A stretch of DNA of 64,000 bases. Origin: Terriglobia bacterium (GTDB lineage Bacteria; Acidobacteriota; Terriglobia; UBA7540). This document shows, piece after piece, positions 3,277 through 61,556 of the stretch (its first letter is position 1; each line of letters opens with the position of its first letter). Where the stretch lies: assembly GCA_050012175.1 (NCBI GenBank), contig JBEKHR010000029.1:1205-65204 (forward strand), given 5' to 3'. A program made the position numbers and the translations under genes. Below the pieces are notes generated by a model. That model ran no database searches. It worked only from the letters and a program-made list of their open reading frames with translations, and had not been told where the DNA came from.

Positions 3277-3635
3277 ACCAGTGCTCCATCCTTAGTCTCT
3301 ACGCAGATGATCCGGTCGTCTCAGTAGTGGCTCGAGTCTCCGCGAGTGTACACCCGCCAGCCTGATGCAGCAAGAGGCGCTGGGGGAGTGATGTCATGCC
3401 AGGGTTGTGGTGTCCCTTTCCATCCTGCTCCCTGGTAGGACGTCACGTTTGTAGCGCCACCTGCACATGTGGCGGGTGTCGCGCTAACGTTACACCCGTG
3501 CGCTACGCGGCCATGGGGTAGCGTCCCAATTAGAATGCAGGGCCGCCTCTCTCCCGCCATGCCGGGACGGGCCGGCCAGGCCGGTCCCGCCTTGCGGGAC
3601 CCCGCCCTACGTCGCATATTAGGACACCACCGGCC

Positions 3636-4949
3636 ATGGGGGGAATGGACAGAAAGCAAAGCTTTCATGATATGGTGGAGTTCACGTTCCGTTTTTCCTG
3701 TGAGCAAGAGAGTTTGCTGGCGAACCCGATGATTCAAAAGAAACAAGACGACGCCACATTTGGCCGGCCGCGTATTACCTCCGGAATTCAAAAAAAGATC
3801 GTCCAGATTAACTGGGAGGTGACAATTTCGAAGCTCCTCGGCGTGGCTTGCGGATTGGTCTTAGGGGGCCTTTTGGTGGCAGGGCTCTGGCCCTTTCACT
3901 CTCCCAGGAATCAGGTGACATGGTTCGCTGGGGGCAACGGCCTGCACTTTGGTCGTCATGGGACGATACTGAGTTCCGGCAAATTCAAGGCGGCGAATGC
4001 GCCAGCGGACGCCCCATGCAGCCTGGAGATCTGGTTCGAGCCTGATCTTACTGCGGCCTCGGCCACTCTCTTCGCCTTCTACGCTCCAGGGAACCCTCGG
4101 CAGTTCTCGCTGAACCAATCCATTACTGACCTTGCCTTGCAAAATGACATTCGCGAGGGGCGCTATCGAACCCTAACCACCAGACTCTTCTATGTTGAAG
4201 ATATTTTCCGTCGGGGAAAGCCGTTGTTCGTAACGGTTACGTCAAAGGGAGGGCAGACGTCAGTCTATATTGACGGTGCGCTGGCCCGAACAGCCCCCAA
4301 GTTTCCGCTCTCCAGCCGGGATTTTGACGGCGAGCTCGTCATCGCCAACTCGCCCATAGTAGAAAGTAGCTGGTCAGGTCTTTTGCGGGGGCTTGCCTTT
4401 TATGACCAAGAGATCTCGCCGGCGCAGGTCTTTCACCACTATGAGACTTGGACAGAAAAGGGACGACCAGACGTTTCCGAAAATGAGCGTGCCGTGGCGC
4501 TTTATCTGTTTGATGAACGCGCGGGTCGTGTCATTCATAACCAAGTGCCCTCGGGAACCGACTTGTATATTCCGGACCGTTATCTGGTTTTGGACCAAGC
4601 CCTCCTACGCCCCTTCTGGGAGGAATTCCGTCCAACTTGGAGCTATTGGGGTGACGTGCTGGTCAACATTGCGGGTTTTGTTCCTTTCGGGTTCCTTTTC
4701 TGCGCCTACTTTTCGCTGGCCGGACGGATCAAAAGGCCGGCACTGGTCACAATCCTTCTAGGGTTCGCAGTCAGCCTTACGATCGAATCTCTTCAGGCAT
4801 TCCTGCCGACGCGGGATTCCGGCACCACAGATGTCATCACAAATACCTTGGGCACTTGTTTCGGAGTTTGGTTGTATCGATTGAACCTTGGGCGAGTCCT
4901 ATTCGCGAGAATCTGGACACACCTTGCGCGAAAAGGGGAATTCGGGTGA
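3636..4949 (+). CDS. membrane protein with a LamG/concanavalin-like domain and a C-terminal VanZ-like domain
   Basis: TM helix LLGVACGLVLGGLLVAGLW, then a central beta-rich region with a lectin-like pattern. The C-terminus (GFVPFGFLFCAYF...ESLQAFLPTRDSGTTDVITNTLGTCFGVWLY) is typical of the VanZ family. The start is uncertain; internal Met codons at 3672 and 3729 are alternatives. Confidence 0.7.
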   Translation: MGGMDRKQSFHDMVEFTFRFSCEQESLLANPMIQKKQDDATFGRPRITSGIQKKIVQINWEVTISKLLGVACGLVLGGLLVAGLWPFHSPRNQVTWFAGGNGLHFGRHGTILSSGKFKAANAPADAPCSLEIWFEPDLTAASATLFAFYAPGNPRQFSLNQSITDLALQNDIREGRYRTLTTRLFYVEDIFRRGKPLFVTVTSKGGQTSVYIDGALARTAPKFPLSSRDFDGELVIANSPIVESSWSGLLRGLAFYDQEISPAQVFHHYETWTEKGRPDVSENERAVALYLFDERAGRVIHNQVPSGTDLYIPDRYLVLDQALLRPFWEEFRPTWSYWGDVLVNIAGFVPFGFLFCAYFSLAGRIKRPALVTILLGFAVSLTIESLQAFLPTRDSGTTDVITNTLGTCFGVWLYRLNLGRVLFARIWTHLARKGEFG

Positions 4950-7806: not shown

Positions 7807-7845
7807 AGCGGGTAGCGCAGAGTCTCGTTTTTCAGAGACTCTGCG
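7807..7845. repeat. REP-like hairpin, left copy flanking the RAYT remnant
   Basis: GCGGGTAGCGCAGAGTCTCGTTTTTCAGAGACTCTGCG. It has an 11-bp stem and is the exact reverse complement of 8130-8168. Confidence 0.8.
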
Positions 7846-8092
7846 TCTTTTCCTTGATCGATTCCATTACACGCGAGATGGTGACCGGGAAACAGGGGAA
7901 TATGATGGCATGCCAGTGATCGGGCAGGAAAACCCACGCCGTAAGCAGAAAGTGATGTTTCTCTCGGCGCTCGCGCAGCACGCCGGCCAAGCACTCGAAT
8001 TCGGATTCCTCAACCATCCGCCGGTGAGGCCGGAGCCGGCAGGTGATGAAGGAGAATCGGTCAAATAAAACCAGGCGGCGCAAGCGGGACAC
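7832..8092 (-). pseudogene. truncated REP-associated tyrosine transposase (RAYT, IS200/IS605 Y1 family)
   Basis: 86-aa ORF: ...FSFITCRLRPHRR...HFLLTAWVFLPDHWHAIIFP...ISRVMESIKEKT. This matches the N-terminal half of RAYTs, including the HxH (HWH) motif. The C-terminal half carrying the catalytic Tyr is missing, and the ORF runs into the REP hairpin. Confidence 0.7.
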
Positions 8093-8129: not shown

Positions 8130-8168
8130 CGCAGAGTCTCTGAAAAACGAGACTCTGCGCTACCCGCT
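8130..8168. repeat. REP-like hairpin, right copy (inverted)
   Basis: CGCAGAGTCTCTGAAAAACGAGACTCTGCGCTACCCGC, the exact reverse complement of 7807-7845. Confidence 0.8.
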
Positions 8169-20848: not shown

Positions 20849-20858
20849 GCCTCCCGCT

Positions 20859-20942
20859 GTCATTCCGAGCGAAGCGAGGAATCTCGCGCTGGTCTGTGGA
20901 TCAAGGACTCAGAGCGAGATTCCTCGCTTCGCTCGGAATGAC
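20859..20942. mobile_element. GTCATTCYGAG-family palindromic element (core only)
   Basis: Perfect 29-bp inverted arms: GTCATTCCGAGCGAAGCGAGGAATCTCGC (20859-20887) and GCGAGATTCCTCGCTTCGCTCGGAATGAC (20914-20942). Confidence 0.75.
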
Positions 20943-20962
20943 ACCCTCGCGGTACGGAAGAC

Positions 20963-31935: not shown

Positions 31936-32155
31936 ACAGGATTCAGGAGTCAGGATTCAGGATTCAGGGAAGCGCGGTGGTGGTGTTTGTCCGATTCCTG
32001 ATGGGAAGGACAGGATTCAAGATACAGGATTCACGATTCGGGGAACTGCGCTGGTGGTGCTTCCCTGGTTCCTGGGGGAAGGACAGGATTTGGGATTCAG
32101 GCAAGTGCGATTGTGGTTTTTCCCTGAATCCCGAATCCTGACTCCTGAATCCTGT
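31936..32155. repeat. 35-bp inverted heptad arms (GGATTCA units) enclosing about three degenerate ~55-70-bp tandem units
   Basis: Left arm ACAGGATTCAGGAGTCAGGATTCAGGATTCAGGGA (31936-31970). The right arm (32121-32155) matches the reverse complement of the left arm at 34/35 positions. The inner units each contain G(A/C)GCG...GTGGTG...TTCCTG...GGGAAGGACAGGATT. Confidence 0.7.
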
Positions 32156-32364
32156 CTCACCAGCGGCCTGAAAGGGAGGCCCACGCGCGAGAAAACATGG
32201 GGACAGCGCGCGCGCGGATGCTAGAATGGCTTCTTTCAGCAGCATGGTGGATTGGCGGCGCCCGCACGAAGGCACGGTTTCTTTGGGTTGGAATCGGGGC
32301 AACTTGCCACCCGCTTTTCCTGTCAGTCCACTTTCGACCATCGACTGTCGACTTGGTTGCTTTC

Positions 32365-35300
32365 ATGTTGAAGCTCAACTCGGAACAGCTCCAGGCGGTT
32401 GAACACCACGATGGGCCGCTGCTCGTCATTGCGGGCCCGGGAAGCGGCAAGACACGAGTCATCACGCAACGTATTGTCCATTTGCTCGAGCACGCCCCCG
32501 GACTCGAACCGCAAAACATTCTGGCCTTAACCTTCACGGAGAAGGCTGCCGGAGAGATGAAGTACCGTGTAGGCCAGGCCCTGCCTGACCTCGCCACCTT
32601 CCCACACGTCTCCACTTTTCACGCCTTCGCTTACGAAGTCATCTGCAACCAAGGGGCGGATCATGACGTAACCCCTCAGTCTCGGGTGGCAACGCACGTA
32701 GCGCCGGTCCCGCGCACGGCGGGACCGGCACCTGCCGCCCTAAAGGGCGGCGCTACACCACCTGAGACCGAGGGATCACATCATCAGCAGGCCGGGGAGC
32801 GCATGTTGCTGGACAAGGAGGATGTGTGGGTTTTCCTCAGGCAACGCATGGAGCAACTCCAGCTCGAGTTCTACCAAAAGCTGGCTGAGCCCGGGGCCTT
32901 CCTACACGCCCTGAGTGAGTTCTTCTCTCGTTGCCAGGACGAGCTCATCGAGCCGGAGGACTTCGAGAAATATGCCCAAGAGGCTGAAAGAACTTTTCTG
33001 GAGAATGCCGCCAGGCTGAAGCCCGAGGAGCGCACCCTCGAAGACGAGGAGATTCAAAAGAAAAAGGAGTTGTCGCGGGTCTTCCGCAACAGCCGCCGGC
33101 TGATCGAGCGGGCGGGTAGTTCCAGTCTTGGCAGCCTGATTCCAGAGGCAGTGCACCTGTTCGACCGCCGTGCGGAAATCCTCCAGCGTTACCGCGCGCA
33201 ATTCCGTTTTGTCCTGGTCGATGAGTTTCAGGACACCAACTACGCCCAGTTGGAGCTGCTCAAGCGGCTGGTGGCGCCACCCTTCAACATTACCGCCGTC
33301 GGCGACGACGACCAGGCCATCTACCGCTTCCGTGGCGCCTCACACGGCGCCTTCGACATGTTTGGGCAAGTATTCCCAGGACACCGGACCATCTTTTTGA
33401 ATCGCAATTACCGCTCCACCGAGCGCGTGCTGCGGGTTGCCGATGTGGTCATCAAGAGGAATGAGGACCGATATCCTTCCAAGCCGGAGCTGAAACCTGA
33501 GCGCGAAGAAGGCTGCCCAGTTTATCTGCTGGGCAGCCCGGACTATGTGAGCGAGGCGAATTGGGTTGCCGGAGAAATACAGCGGCTCGTGGCTAAGGGC
33601 TCTTCGTATCGCGACATTGCCGTCCTGTACCGGGCGCATAACTATCGCGACCGACTCGTGGAGGAATTTCAGCGCCGGGGCATACCGTTCGCTATTCGTG
33701 GCCTTTCGGTTCTTTCCACAGTGATTATTCGGGACCTCTTCGCCTACCTTAACTTGGTCCTTTCCCCCCACGACAATATCAGCCTGACGCGGGTACTCCT
33801 GGTGCCGCGATGGAACTTTCGGGAAGAAGTCGCCCTGCAAGTCCGGGTGGAAGCAGAGAAGCAGCGCTGCTCGCTTTATGACGTCCTCACCTCCTGGGAA
33901 AAGGGTCCGAACCCTACCCTCCTCCGAACCACCCACTGGGAGGCCTTGAAACGGCTTCTCCACGACTTGCACTGGGCGGCGCAAAACGGGACGGTAACGA
34001 CGCTGTTCAAGCTCCTCCGCGAGCGGCTCCAACTGCAATCGTTTCTTGGCGAGCGTGACCTGGGGTATGTAAATGCTTTCGAGGGATTCCTCCGGGAGTG
34101 GGAGGAAAAGATCTCGAAATTCCCGCCGCTGGCCGGGCCGGAGTGGGAGGATGCAGGCGCGGAAAAGAAGCCCAGGAAGAATCTGCGCGAATTCATTTAT
34201 TACTTCCGGCATTACCTCGAGGCGGGAGGAAAGATTGAAGCGCCTGACCTGGGAGAACGTGCCGACGCCGTCCAGATGATGAGCGTGCACGCTGCCAAGG
34301 GGCTGGAGTTTCCCGTCGTCTTCCTGCTCAGCGTGGCCTCACGCCGTTTTCCGGCCACGGAGCGCAGGGCCGTCATCGAGTTCCCTGACGAACTTCGCAA
34401 GGGGCCTCTGCCGCCGCAGAATATTCACATGCAAGAGGAACGCCGGCTGTTCTTTGTGGCCCTCACGCGCGCCAAGGACCGCCTCTACGTATCCAGCGTG
34501 GCTGCGCCGGGGAAGAAGCCGTCAAAATTCATCGATGACTTGCTCGCCGACCGGGTGGTTGAGGCTCGGGACATCGAGCGCCTCCAGGCGAAGGAAGTCA
34601 CACAACTCCCCGCCCCGGCTATTCAACTGCCACGTGCCGAAGAGCATAGTCCTCAGCGAAGACTATTCGGGGAGATAGCCGAGGCGGCCGGGGTTCATCC
34701 TCCGATTGCGGAATGGGCCGCGCGCGAACCTGAAATCAAGCCGGGGGAAAAACTGCGCCTGAGCGCTTCGTCGATTGAGGATTACGAGGACTGCCCGCTG
34801 AAGTTCAAGTTCGGCCATTACCTCAAAATCCCCACAGGTCCACAGGCCGCCCTCACCTTTGGAAATATCATGCACCGCTCGGTAAGGCACTATTTCGAGT
34901 TGCGGGCCAAGGGAGAAGCAAACTTCGAGGCCGTAAAGAGGTTTTACGAGTTGTCGTGGAGGAAGACCGAGTTCGAGGACGAATACCAGGAGCAAGCCTA
35001 CAAGCAAGCGGGGCTGGAGCAATTGCGCGCCTTCGTGGAAAAGCAGGAAAGCAGTGAAACGCTGCCCCTGAGCATGGAAAGCTCCTTCTCACTGGACCTG
35101 GGCGAAGTATGGTTGCAAGGCCGCATTGACCAGATTAGTCCCCTGGCCCCGCACACGCGGGAGGGCGAGCGCGCCGTCGAACTGGTTGACTACAAGACCG
35201 GCAAGCCCCGCTCGCAGAAGGATGCCGACAAGAGCTTGCAGCTCTCCGTTTACGCCCTGGCCGCGCAGGAACAAATGAAGCTGAGACCGGTGCGCTTGAC

Positions 35301-35490
35301 GTTTTATTGCCTCACCAACAACGAGCCTGTCCACACCGTCAGGACCGAACAGGACCTTAAAGCCGTCAAGACTGAGATCCTGACGGTAGCCGGCCGGATC
35401 CGCCAGAACCATTTCCCCGCTGCGCCCGGTTTTGTGTGTAAGTTCTGCGATTACCAGCCCATCTGTCCTGCGCACGAGGAGAACTTCTAG
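32365..35490 (+). CDS. UvrD/PcrA-type superfamily-1 helicase fused to a C-terminal PD-(D/E)xK nuclease with a Cas4/AddB-type Fe-S cluster
   Basis: Start at [30 protein letters not shown] (motif I). Also [41 protein letters not shown] and [17 protein letters not shown]. The nuclease part has ...[10 protein letters not shown]...GRIDQI...[11 protein letters not shown]...QLSVYALA...[11 protein letters not shown]. Confidence 0.88.
32673..32774. repeat. 102-nt nested palindrome embedded in frame in the helicase gene
   Basis: Outer arms CCCTCAGTCTCGGGTGG (32673-32689) and CCACCTGAGACCGAGGG (32758-32774), matching at 15/17. Inner GTAGCGC...GCGCTAC (32698-32756) encloses a 10-bp hairpin (32704-32728) and a 7-bp hairpin (32734-32751). 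Confidence 0.7.
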
Positions 35491-42536: not shown

Positions 42537-42702
42537 CCGAATTCGAAAGTTCGCAGCCGCCGTTCGAGCCGAATCACTTGATTCGAGGCCCGTTTGACGC
42601 AGATACCGGAGGAACAAAATCGTGCGGCGCCGGGCGTAGGGGCACAGCGCGCTGTGCCCCTACAAGATGCACATCACACCCACGCTAACTTCCGAATTCG
42701 GG
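42537..42702. mobile_element. MITE-like element with CCGAATTCGAAAGTT / AACTTCCGAATTCGG terminal inverted repeats (copy 1)
   Basis: 166 bp. Carries an internal GTAGGGGCACAGCGCGCTGTGCCCCTAC hairpin (42636-42663). A second, longer copy lies at 57763-58010. Confidence 0.75.
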
Positions 42703-57762: not shown

Positions 57763-58010
57763 CCCGAATTCGAAAGTTGGGAGCCGCCGGTCGAGCCGAA
57801 TCAATTGATTCGAGGCCCGTTTGACGGAGATACCGGAGGAACAAAATGGTGCGGGGTCGGGCGTAGGGGCACAGCGCGCTGTGCCCCTACAAGAGGCCCG
57901 TTTGACGGAGATACCGGAGGAACAAAATGGTGCGGGGTCGGGCGTAGGGGCACAGCGCGCTGTGCCCCTACAAGATGTACGTCGCACCCACGCTAACTTC
58001 CGAATTCGGG
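57763..58010. mobile_element. MITE-like element (copy 2 of the 42537-42702 family) with an internal 81-bp tandem duplication
   Basis: Same TIRs as copy 1 (CCCGAATTCGAAAGTT ... AACTTCCGAATTCGGG). Units 57813-57893 and 57894-57974 are identical, and each contains the GTAGGGGCACAGCGCGCTGTGCCCCTAC hairpin. Confidence 0.8.
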
Positions 58011-59684: not shown

Positions 59685-59847
59685 GTCATTCCGATCCCGC
59701 AGTCGCGGGAGAGGAATCTCGCTCTGTTCTTTCTTCCTCCTGTCCCCAGGTCACCTTGAGCGCCGGTCCGCAGGCAGAGCGAGATTCCTCCCCTTCGCTC
59801 CGCTCTGGGTCGGAATGACAACGTTCACGAAGGTCTTTCAGCATCCT
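59685..59847. mobile_element. GTCATTCYGAG-family element lacking the left terminal repeat
   Basis: GTCATTCCGATCCCGCAGTCGCGGGAGAGGAATCTCGC ... GCGAGATTCCTC...GGTCGGAATGACAACGTTCACGAAGGTCTTTCAGCATCCT. The right end is near-identical to that of 6159-6319. Confidence 0.7.
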
Positions 59848-61432: not shown

Positions 61433-61556
61433 CAGGATTCAGGATTCAGGGGAAAGAAATGTGCCGGAGGGTGAGTGCTAAGGGTTTGCTCCTCCCTAGA
61501 TTCCAGCCCCTGTTAATCCCTGGCTCCTGAATCCCGAATCCTGAATCCTGAATCCT
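61433..61556. repeat. inverted heptad arms (GGATTCA units) between xylB and the oxidoreductase gene
   Basis: CAGGATTCAGGATTCAGGGG ... CTCCTGAATCCCGAATCCTGAATCCTGAATCCT. The unit family is the same as at 31936-32155 and 62941-62968. Confidence 0.65.

Follow-up and report, generated by a model that had tools for sequence, protein, structure and literature searches.

We found that a nested palindrome within a helicase-nuclease gene of a Terriglobia bacterium is probably a non-autonomous palindromic repeat, one copy of which has entered the coding sequence and is translated together with it. The gene lies in a 64,000-nt stretch of contig JBEKHR010000029.1, the whole of which was analysed and is called the window here, and it encodes a superfamily 1 (SF1) helicase of the UvrD/PcrA type joined to a nuclease (coordinates in Table 1). 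Its open reading frame (ORF) is intact, with 1041 aa from an ATG at 32365 that is also used by the orthologs, and the product begins with MLKLNSEQ. Pfam matches to UvrD-helicase (4.6e-62), UvrD_C (6.5e-51) and, at the C-terminus, PDDEXK_1 (9.6e-39) agreed with an earlier reading of this DNA from its letters alone (the sequence-only reading), which had named the host a UvrD-type helicase-nuclease. Since an NCBIfam scan of the protein gave no equivalog at or above cut-off, UvrD/PcrA-type helicase-nuclease is the gene name used here. The nearest relatives of the protein were found in metagenome-assembled genomes (MAGs) of Terriglobia (Acidobacteriota), and full-length orthologs showed up to 96% identity.

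The segment is present in some alleles of the gene and absent from others. When residues between TFHxF (motif Ib) and VWxFL were counted in an alignment of 120 homologs, distant orthologs (~60% identity) had 29 residues at the site, many close orthologs (75-92% identity) had 35 and the window protein had 75, which answered in the affirmative the question, attached to the sequence-only reading, of whether the segment is lineage-specific. The comparison at the DNA level covered about 19 close orthologs among the matches listed and further alleles from four exact look-ups (L with a number denotes a DNA locus of relatives and P with a number a protein of relatives). Between the same anchor codons there were 177 nt in the window and 57 nt in the empty alleles L001, L013 and L019, a difference of exactly 120 nt with clean junctions. 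The insertion that had been proposed was thus borne out, but its extent of 102 nt was not, as 120 nt (40 codons) are missing from the empty alleles; owing to a flanking direct repeat, the boundaries of the insert could equally be written as 32660-32779. The flanks of the empty allele L013 were 95.4% and 97.2% identical to those of the window, which makes this allele no more distant than the filled allele L200 (95.8%). Single protein clusters at 90% identity held filled and empty alleles together, which, with near-identical flanks, indicates that presence or absence of the insert varies at roughly species-level divergence.

A six-frame check of the 120-nt insert found stops in five frames, the sole open frame being that of the host gene. 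A gene under selection can retain insertions in this frame alone. An intein, an intron or an intervening sequence excised from the RNA was considered and rejected: the filled alleles are all multiples of 3 nt without stops, and a 40-residue insert with no splicing domain and only one open frame also fails this explanation. As the source is apparently a MAG and repeats can cause mis-joins, the palindrome might be an assembly artefact, or the gene a pseudogene with the repeat outside any expressed gene. This is scarcely credible, given an ORF that is intact over 1041 codons with all its domains, a conserved gene order around the locus, and independent NCBI, ENA and JGI assemblies in which this filled allele or derivatives of it recur with identical junctions.

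The insert is a palindrome of several levels. The inner portions of its outer arms, 32673-32689 (CCCTCAGTCTCGGGTGG) and 32758-32774 (CCACCTGAGACCGAGGG), lie where the sequence-only reading had located a nested palindrome with 17-bp outer arms, and 15 of their 17 positions are complementary by eye; the 102 nt from one end to the other are 34 codons in the frame of the host, and translation confirmed the peptide as it had been written. The outer palindrome reaches beyond these arms, as far as GTAAC... (32668) on one side and ...GATCAC (32780) on the other. Between the arms lies a doublet with the structure of GTAG-type repetitive extragenic palindromes (REPs), in which GTAG (32698-32701) stands before an 11-bp stem and CTAC (32753-32756) comes after one of 8 bp; the window core was matched at E = 5.5e-8 by an nhmmer model built for it. 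The doublet is closed by a clamp, GTAGCGCCG / CGGCGCTAC at 32698-32706 / 32748-32756, which was paired in the minimum-free-energy structure. This clamp had been described as GTAGCGC...GCGCTAC at 32698-32756, a correct position with too short a length (9 bp, not 7), and the two inner hairpins, likewise present, have stems of 11 and 8 bp where 10 and 7 bp had been given. Folded as single-stranded DNA (ssDNA), 32660-32790 reached -40.2 kcal/mol, compared with -22.7 +/- 2.6 kcal/mol in dinucleotide shuffles (z = -6.7, with 0 of 200 shuffles as good), and folded as RNA it reached -80.2 kcal/mol (z = -9.3). The nested palindromy of 32673-32774 is far beyond chance. [quoted passage not shown]

Table 1. 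Coordinates of the host gene, the inserted palindrome with its parts, and related features in the window
Feature	Position	Strand	Basis or remark
Host gene, SF1 UvrD/PcrA-type helicase with C-terminal PD-(D/E)XK nuclease	32365..35490	+	Pfam, orthologs
Inserted segment, 120 nt (40 codons) absent from empty alleles	32667..32786	+	alignment with L001, L013, L019
Direct repeat, left copy ATCATGA	32660-32666	+	6/7 match to right copy
Direct repeat, right copy ATCATCA	32780-32786	+	6/7 match to left copy
Left outer arm GTAACCCCTCAGTCTCGGGTGG	32668..32689	+	pairs with 32758-32780 in fold
Right outer arm CCACCTGAGACCGAGGGATCAC	32758..32780	+	fold; common to orthologs with differing interiors (L200, L202, L203)
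Core, head-to-head doublet of GTAG-tagged REP hairpins, GTAGCGCC...GGCGCTAC, REPIN-like unit	32698..32756	+	family consensus, nhmmer
Hairpin 1 of doublet, GCCGGTCCCGC / GCGGGACCGGC, 11-bp stem (32703-32713 / 32719-32729), 5-nt loop	32703..32729	+	
Hairpin 2 of doublet, GCCGCCCT / AGGGCGGC, 8-bp stem (32734-32741 / 32744-32751), 2-nt loop	32734..32751	+	
Related intergenic module GGTCCCGC-CTT-GCGGGACC, then CCCGCCCTAC (GTAG head, other strand)	3583..3601	+	exact stems, 0 expected by chance
Truncated Y1_Tnp (IS200-like) relic, 86-aa ORF with PDHWHAII	7835-8092	-	PF01797, 22.3 bits, just below cut-off 23

The doublet was found to be a member of a dispersed repeat family. One genome per GTDB species was scanned with a 23-nt pattern of the right-hand module (GCCRCCCTWWAGGGYGGCGCTAC), and this gave at least 121 matches in at least 119 loci, with several loci per MAG. 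Among the matches listed, 117 of 119 records were labelled Acidobacteriota, Terriglobia or Acidiferrales, and the copies were mostly intergenic, with ~8% within Pfam-supported ORFs. The two remaining records (L166 and L184) are REP-bearing contigs of MAGs labelled Patescibacteria and Actinocrinis, and may be mis-binned, because the distribution is otherwise exclusively Acidobacteriota. The 50-nt family consensus GTAGCGCCGGGCTTTAGCCCGGCAYGTGCCGCCCTAAAGGGCGGCGCTAC reads GTAGCGCC-GGGCTTTAGCCC-GGCAYGT-GCCGCCCTAAAGGGCGGC-GCTAC and thus consists of two GTAG-headed hairpins in inverted orientation. One pair in the stem of hairpin 2 covaried among the 121 listed copies (100 G:C, 20 A:T, 1 G:T and 0 A:C, the pattern having permitted all four), which indicates that pairing has been maintained. 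In 39 of the 121 listed copies the doublet was complete and its spacer no longer than 7 nt (36 with the common hairpin and 3 with the variant of the window); 19 had a degenerate left unit, and 63 had no adjacent left unit and were singletons or had long spacers. The hairpin 1 of the window (GGTCCCGC...GCGGGACC) is a minority stem variant, most copies having GGGCTTnAGCCC, and it was also found in L083, L132, L176, the protein P0157 and the P0128 ortholog cluster.

Within the window, BLASTN with the 102-mer and the nhmmer core model found no second copy. The sequence-only reading had matched modules of the element to intergenic hairpins elsewhere in the window; one exact module supported this (3583-3601, Table 1), but GTAGCGC heads occurred at about chance frequency. 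For the question of further copies in the genome, which that reading had also raised, the answer came from the relatives, with the dispersed family in MAGs of Terriglobia and other Acidobacteriota and a near-complete intergenic composite in L083. The module at 3583-3601 belongs to a group of REP-like hairpins clustered between genes at 3430-3640. Also in this group are GTAGCGCC...GCGCTAC (3451-3506) and a GTAGGGCGG-GGTCCCGC hairpin enclosed by outer arms that are related to the GGTAGTGTCCTAATT...AATTAGGACACTACC family.

The composite form, with a doublet inside outer arms, recurs at unrelated loci. L083, from another Terriglobia MAG, contained the outer arms, a variant doublet and the GTAAY/RTTAC tips, with ~88% identity over 113 nt, in a spacer between two convergent ORFs; the left outer arm had 2 mismatches in 30 nt there and was also present in L081. 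L081 and L132 hold partial composite copies, in L149 a different, unrelated GTAG doublet lies within the same outer arms, and P0156 encodes a 34-residue peptide that is another composite copy. Inverted repeats of at least 10 nt flanked 11 of 39 complete doublets, compared with 11 of 189 controls in which flanks were paired across different copies, and one outer pair around doublets, GGTAGTGTCCTAATTT...AAATTAGGACACTACC, was recurrent. The nesting of doublets within outer inverted repeats is common in the family. These copies bear on another conceivable origin, in which template switching or hairpin-templated repair within the gene made the palindrome grow at its present site, without a mobile element. 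Template switching yields just such perfect nested symmetry, alleles of otherwise identical context differ by an exchange of hairpin 1, and the window lacks a second copy; against these points stand the same 50-nt doublet at more than 100 unrelated loci, the whole composite both in an intergenic spacer of another MAG and in P0156, and the existence of Y1 transposase genes flanked by the repeat. The unrelated copies are not fragments of helicase genes, and growth in place is very improbable, being close to refuted.

The insertion into a coding sequence was not restricted to the helicase gene. Intragenic copies were sought as stop-free ORFs spanning each of the 121 listed copies, and 11 of these copies had at least 200 nt of open frame on each side. 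Pfam assigned the interrupted ORFs to a GH38 alpha-mannosidase (L178), an AcrB-type transporter (L089), a Ser/Thr protein kinase (L138), a B-family DNA polymerase (PolB, L099), UvrA (L116) and a LolA-like protein with two doublets (L106), and in L199 the element was near the C-terminus of a tetratricopeptide repeat (TPR) protein. A second AcrB insertion (L175, in an ORF that ends at the locus edge) occupied the same site as that of L089 in a different Acidobacteriota MAG. As displayed, the peptides of these two AcrB inserts have 22 (L089) and 21 (L175) residues, in frame and at the same position. The two REP doublets of the LolA-like ORF (6333-7268 of L106) are in tandem, between the LolA and DUF2092 matches. 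The element is translated as a recurrent 17-residue peptide or, in reverse orientation, as VAPPFRAA.... Short low-complexity peptide queries have too little power, and prevalence was therefore taken from ORFs spanning DNA matches; with a concatenated query of 57 aa, 15 short hypothetical ORFs were all that was found, and an exhaustive search with the 49-aa insert peptide returned 3 matches. The resemblance to in-frame insertions of Rickettsia palindromic elements (RPEs), suggested in the sequence-only reading, holds for behaviour, since family copies lie in frame in several unrelated genes.

Alignment of the window protein to PcrA with phmmer paired query residues 3-93 with PcrA 11-100 and resumed at query 192 / PcrA 131. 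The insert site is at the start of what is domain 1B in the structures of PcrA and UvrD. An AlphaFold2 model built with 59 homologs had a mean predicted local distance difference test (pLDDT) score of 74 and placed a helix at 85-99, a coil with pLDDT below 50 (block means 26-31) at 100-143 and a strand at 147-149. The low-pLDDT coil between helix and strand suggests that the insert is an unstructured excursion directly after motif Ib, which is the outcome of the structural check that had been put forward with the sequence-only reading, and the Pro/Ala/Gly/Thr-rich peptide is predicted to form an unstructured loop between the post-motif-Ib helix and the next strand. We infer that the loop tolerates extra residues and that the insert would be a neutral or nearly neutral passenger. 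It is improbable that the insert has instead been kept as useful, either as a linker tuning the helicase domains 1A and 1B or as a stable mRNA or DNA hairpin regulating a repair gene. Its in-frame persistence across lineages down to ~80% protein identity and the very stable RNA hairpin (-80 kcal/mol) would fit such a use, as would the presence of the family in uvrA and polB, which echoes the over-representation of repair genes among REP-tagged ORFs (PMC3733652). Near-identical relatives, however, lack the insert, the peptide is predicted to be disordered and is not conserved, the fillings differing wholly in sequence and length, and an Rfam scan of 32300-33100 at E <= 1 gave zero matches; the element is also found in mannosidase, efflux pump, kinase and LolA genes, which argues against a repair-specific role.

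The history of the site was examined with a neighbour-joining tree of about 65 close orthologs, in which the variable segment was masked. Empty alleles, always with 9 residues, interleaved in this tree with several fillings. At least three nested filling types, wholly different in sequence, were found between shared outer arms, and the site ranged from 9 to 56 residues. At the DNA level, type A, the filling of the window (with a stretch of 37 residues), was seen in the window, L200 and L201; type B, ASRVAPTLLSMSA...GAYINGNVCATRETEG..., with two other hairpins, was seen in L203; and type C, GFRIQDSGFR..., a translated (CAGGATT)n array, was seen in L202. One of the type B hairpins is also intergenic in L178. 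The right outer arm aligned across types A, B and C (window, L200, L202 for C and L203 for B). The left junction GATCATGACGTaAC was common to the window and L201 and the right junction GGGATCACATCATCAGCAGG to the window and L200, while L200 lacked 45 nt of the left side and L201 lacked the right arm, both remaining in frame.

Arrays of the type C heptamer, (CAGGATT)n, were also observed outside genes in the window and in L200. Those of the window are inverted CAGGATT / AATCCTG arrays at 32084-32156 and 61433-61556, one of which lies directly upstream of the helicase start codon. The array translated in frame as GFRIQDSGFR at the hotspot belongs to the ortholog P0010 (locus L202), and the peptides of P0012, P0029 and P0037 look like that of P0010 at the protein level alone.

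These states could have come about in two ways. At a true insertion hotspot, several independent insertions of different repeats would have occurred in the same few nucleotides and the empty alleles would be ancestral; the interleaving of empty and filled alleles, both on the ortholog tree and in 90% clusters, and the existence of at least three filling types are in its favour, as are the GTAGCGCC...GGCGCTAC elements of L002 and L003, which are joined directly to the TGC codon by a slightly different junction, and the difference of hairpin 1 between the window and L200. REPs are also known as targets of further insertions (PMC3733652). The shared junctions (left in the window and L201, right in the window and L200), the resemblance of L200 and L201 to deletion derivatives of a window-like allele and the homology of the right outer arm in types A, B and C weigh on the other side, the last fitting one founding insertion followed by nesting and deletion, and we consider repeated independent insertion rather unlikely. 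According to the history that we prefer, the outer hairpin would have arrived once, in an ancestor of the clade, with further hairpin modules landing in it afterwards; it would repeatedly have been trimmed or lost through in-frame deletions, or alleles would have been exchanged, while selection on the helicase would purge versions that are out of frame or contain stops. A founding insertion with nesting and with trimming or loss would explain both the several fillings and the interleaved empty alleles.

A Y1 (HUH) transposase of the RAYT (REP-associated tyrosine transposase) or TIRYT type may mobilise the family itself, or may once have done so, in the form of single-stranded DNA hairpins. An ORF with a Y1_Tnp match (PF01797) lies ~120 nt from the composite doublet in L154. 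In L106, the 8-kb locus that also carries the LolA-like ORF, a frameshifted Y1_Tnp ORF (32.1 bits, cut-off 23) has family doublets to either side (3872-4706). The window was searched by tblastn with the L154 protein and with an E. coli RAYT sequence that served as a probe only, the hits being checked against Pfam, and no intact transposase was found, only the truncated relic of Table 1. This relic is bracketed by inverted GTAGCGC-headed hairpins, GTAGCGCAGAGTCTC-GTTTTTCA-GAGACTCTGCG, at 7812-7845 and 8130-8163. As far as can be judged from gene neighbourhoods, the Y1_Tnp genes fit the RAYT/TIRYT picture without proving it.

Several observations weigh against a mobile palindromic repeat with a single founding insertion. 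Hairpin 1 differs in alleles that are otherwise co-linear, GGTCCCGC... in the window and GGGCTTTAGCCC in L200, so that a history of one insertion needs an extra conversion step, and the spread of the empty alleles is patchy, so that many precise deletions or an exchange of alleles between lineages are needed. No transposition event was observed. The 64-kb window holds only one copy of the doublet, multi-copy status having been shown for relatives, and the neutrality of the peptide rests on structure prediction. The link to a transposase comprises 2 of the 119 listed loci and one relic, and the Y1_Tnp gene of L154 has its own, different terminal inverted repeats. The 7-nt repeat that flanks the insert may be a target-site duplication or a microhomology used in deletion; as a target duplication it is imperfect, no matching direct repeat was found around the intergenic copy of L083 when the sequence was read by eye, and it does not fit a Y1-type mechanism. 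Y1-type (IS200/IS605) transposition is not known to make a target duplication.

One further proposal goes beyond the insertion itself. The helicase loop could be a self-perpetuating landing pad, in which a Y1 transposase would put GTAG-REP doublets specifically into the single-stranded loops of hairpins already present, so that palindromes grow by nesting even in a conserved gene, and the recurrence of the element in repair and replication genes (helicase-nuclease, uvrA and polB) would reflect functional interplay, not chance. We regard this as decidedly improbable. If it were true, enzymes that would process REP hairpins might, for example, be weakened or retargeted; alternatively, insertion might be coupled to repair-associated ssDNA.

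The surroundings of the gene and other repeats of the window were also recorded. Gene order near the helicase (22246-45658 of the window) is conserved in relatives when compared with L200, L201, L202 and L203. Upstream, on the opposite strand, there is an RND (resistance-nodulation-division) efflux operon (OEP, two AcrB-type genes and MFP), and rmuC lies directly downstream; in L203 the downstream side of the helicase is occupied instead by gidA, genes of a toxin-antitoxin kind and a transposase of IS66. A perfect 28-nt palindrome, GTAGGGGCACAGCGCGCTGTGCCCCTAC, has three copies in the window (42636-42663, 57863-57890 and 57944-57971), two of them 53 nt apart, and represents a further REP family of the GTAG...CTAC type in this genome. 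Long inverted repeats on TGTCATTCCGAGCGAAGCGAGGAATCTCGC, with 34-nt arms that are 97% complementary, were found at 20858-20943 and 59708-59793, and the TGTCATTCCGAGCGAAGCGAGGAATCTCGC motif is also nested inside a GTAGCGC...GCGCTAC element in L002 and lies beside a REP in L130.

GTAG-tagged REPs, their head-to-head dimers and their link to Y1 transposases were defined by Di Nocera, De Gregorio and Rocco (2013, BMC Genomics 14:522; PMC3733652), with a stem of 5-13 bp, a loop of 2-20 nt and GTAG at one end of an imperfect palindrome (Table 1 of PMC3733652), and REP doublets forming hairpins (REPINs) were described by Bertels and Rainey (2011; PMC3116915). By its structure the element of the window is a GTAG REP doublet, and its behaviour resembles that of an RPE. 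With GTAG REPs, REPINs and the bacterial interspersed mosaic elements (BIMEs) of E. coli it shares a GTAG head beside a small hairpin that is rich in GC (8-11 bp in the stem), two inverted units that are able to fold as one larger hairpin and, in related genomes, many dispersed copies that are mostly intergenic and often follow convergent genes; Y1 transposase genes flanked by the repeats may be a further common trait. Also shared is a minority of copies in ORFs that encode 20-40 residues, with repair and replication hosts (UvrD/Rep helicase, uvrA, polymerases) prominent. Earlier work had reported that REPs wholly inside ORFs encode 20-30 or more residues, that REP-tagged ORFs include many replication and repair genes (UvrABC, UvrD/Rep helicase, PolI, RecBCD and DnaE2), and that in-frame REPs occur in Opitutus terrae, Thauera, Thioalkalivibrio and Rickettsia conorii (PMC3733652). 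The family described here differs in being from uncultured Terriglobia and was matched to no published one; in addition, its doublet is nested in a further hairpin, and one codon position holds several nested fillings, for which no such description was found.

In-frame insertion is known classically from RPEs (Ogata et al. 2000; summaries in PMC10969869 and PMC3733652), and like them the element is a palindromic repeat of ~100-150 nt in frame in many unrelated genes, with products that are apparently functional and peptides at fold-compatible positions. Membership in an RPE family is not expected, because the element is GTAG-tagged whereas RPE-4 and RPE-6 are CGTC-type REPs (PMC3733652). Furthermore, the element was found in a soil bacterium that is free-living and rich in GC and not in a reduced intracellular genome, and the intragenic share appears much lower, at ~8% of the listed copies, compared with nearly half in some RPE families. 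The resemblance to RPEs noted in the sequence-only reading was thus apt for the in-frame behaviour, while the element is better named a GTAG-tagged REP doublet nested in a second hairpin. MITEs that carry ORFs and form in-frame fusions to host genes (among them ERIC/YPAL, Nezha and QMITE, reviewed in PMC10969869) resemble it in their terminal inverted repeats (here the outer arms), small size, lack of transposase coding, in-frame fusion and possibly a short direct repeat, but its core has REP (GTAG) features and not ends derived from an insertion sequence (IS); neither the window nor the loci retrieved from relatives showed a parent insertion sequence with these ends, although no search was targeted at one. 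The 2013 survey recorded only TIR-associated Y1 transposases for Acidobacteria, TIR denoting terminal inverted repeats (PMC3733652). Shared with the IS200/IS605 Y1, RAYT and TIRYT systems is the position of Y1_Tnp beside or between repeat copies (L154, L106), and the relic of the window is bracketed by GTAGCGC hairpins; the window differs in having no intact transposase, and the L154 gene is TIRYT-like through its own terminal repeats.

The literature searched contained no report of in-frame REP- or RPE-like insertions in Acidobacteria or Terriglobia. To this extent the sequence-only reading, which knew of no description for this kind of genome, was right, but in-frame GTAG-REPs in UvrD/Rep, uvrA and recBCD genes were published in 2013, together with the speculation that REP-tagged repair proteins could give mutator phenotypes (PMC3733652). 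The novelty lies in the lineage, in the nesting and in a hotspot with several states within one loop; the phenomenon itself is known from other bacteria.

The decoration of proteins by in-frame REP- or RPE-like repeats is thereby extended to uncultured Terriglobia of peat and soil, a major soil lineage. For annotation, the recurrent 17-residue peptide in Terriglobia proteins should be taken as encoded by a repeat and not as a domain. The intragenic copies of the family allow a test of whether the bias of intragenic REPs towards repair genes is due to chance. A single loop of the helicase provides a natural series of states, from empty, through the outer hairpin and the outer hairpin with three nested fillings, to deletion derivatives, some of them only ~3-5% DNA divergence apart, and this series could be used to study the ways in which disordered loops of proteins arise from selfish palindromes and are reshaped by them.

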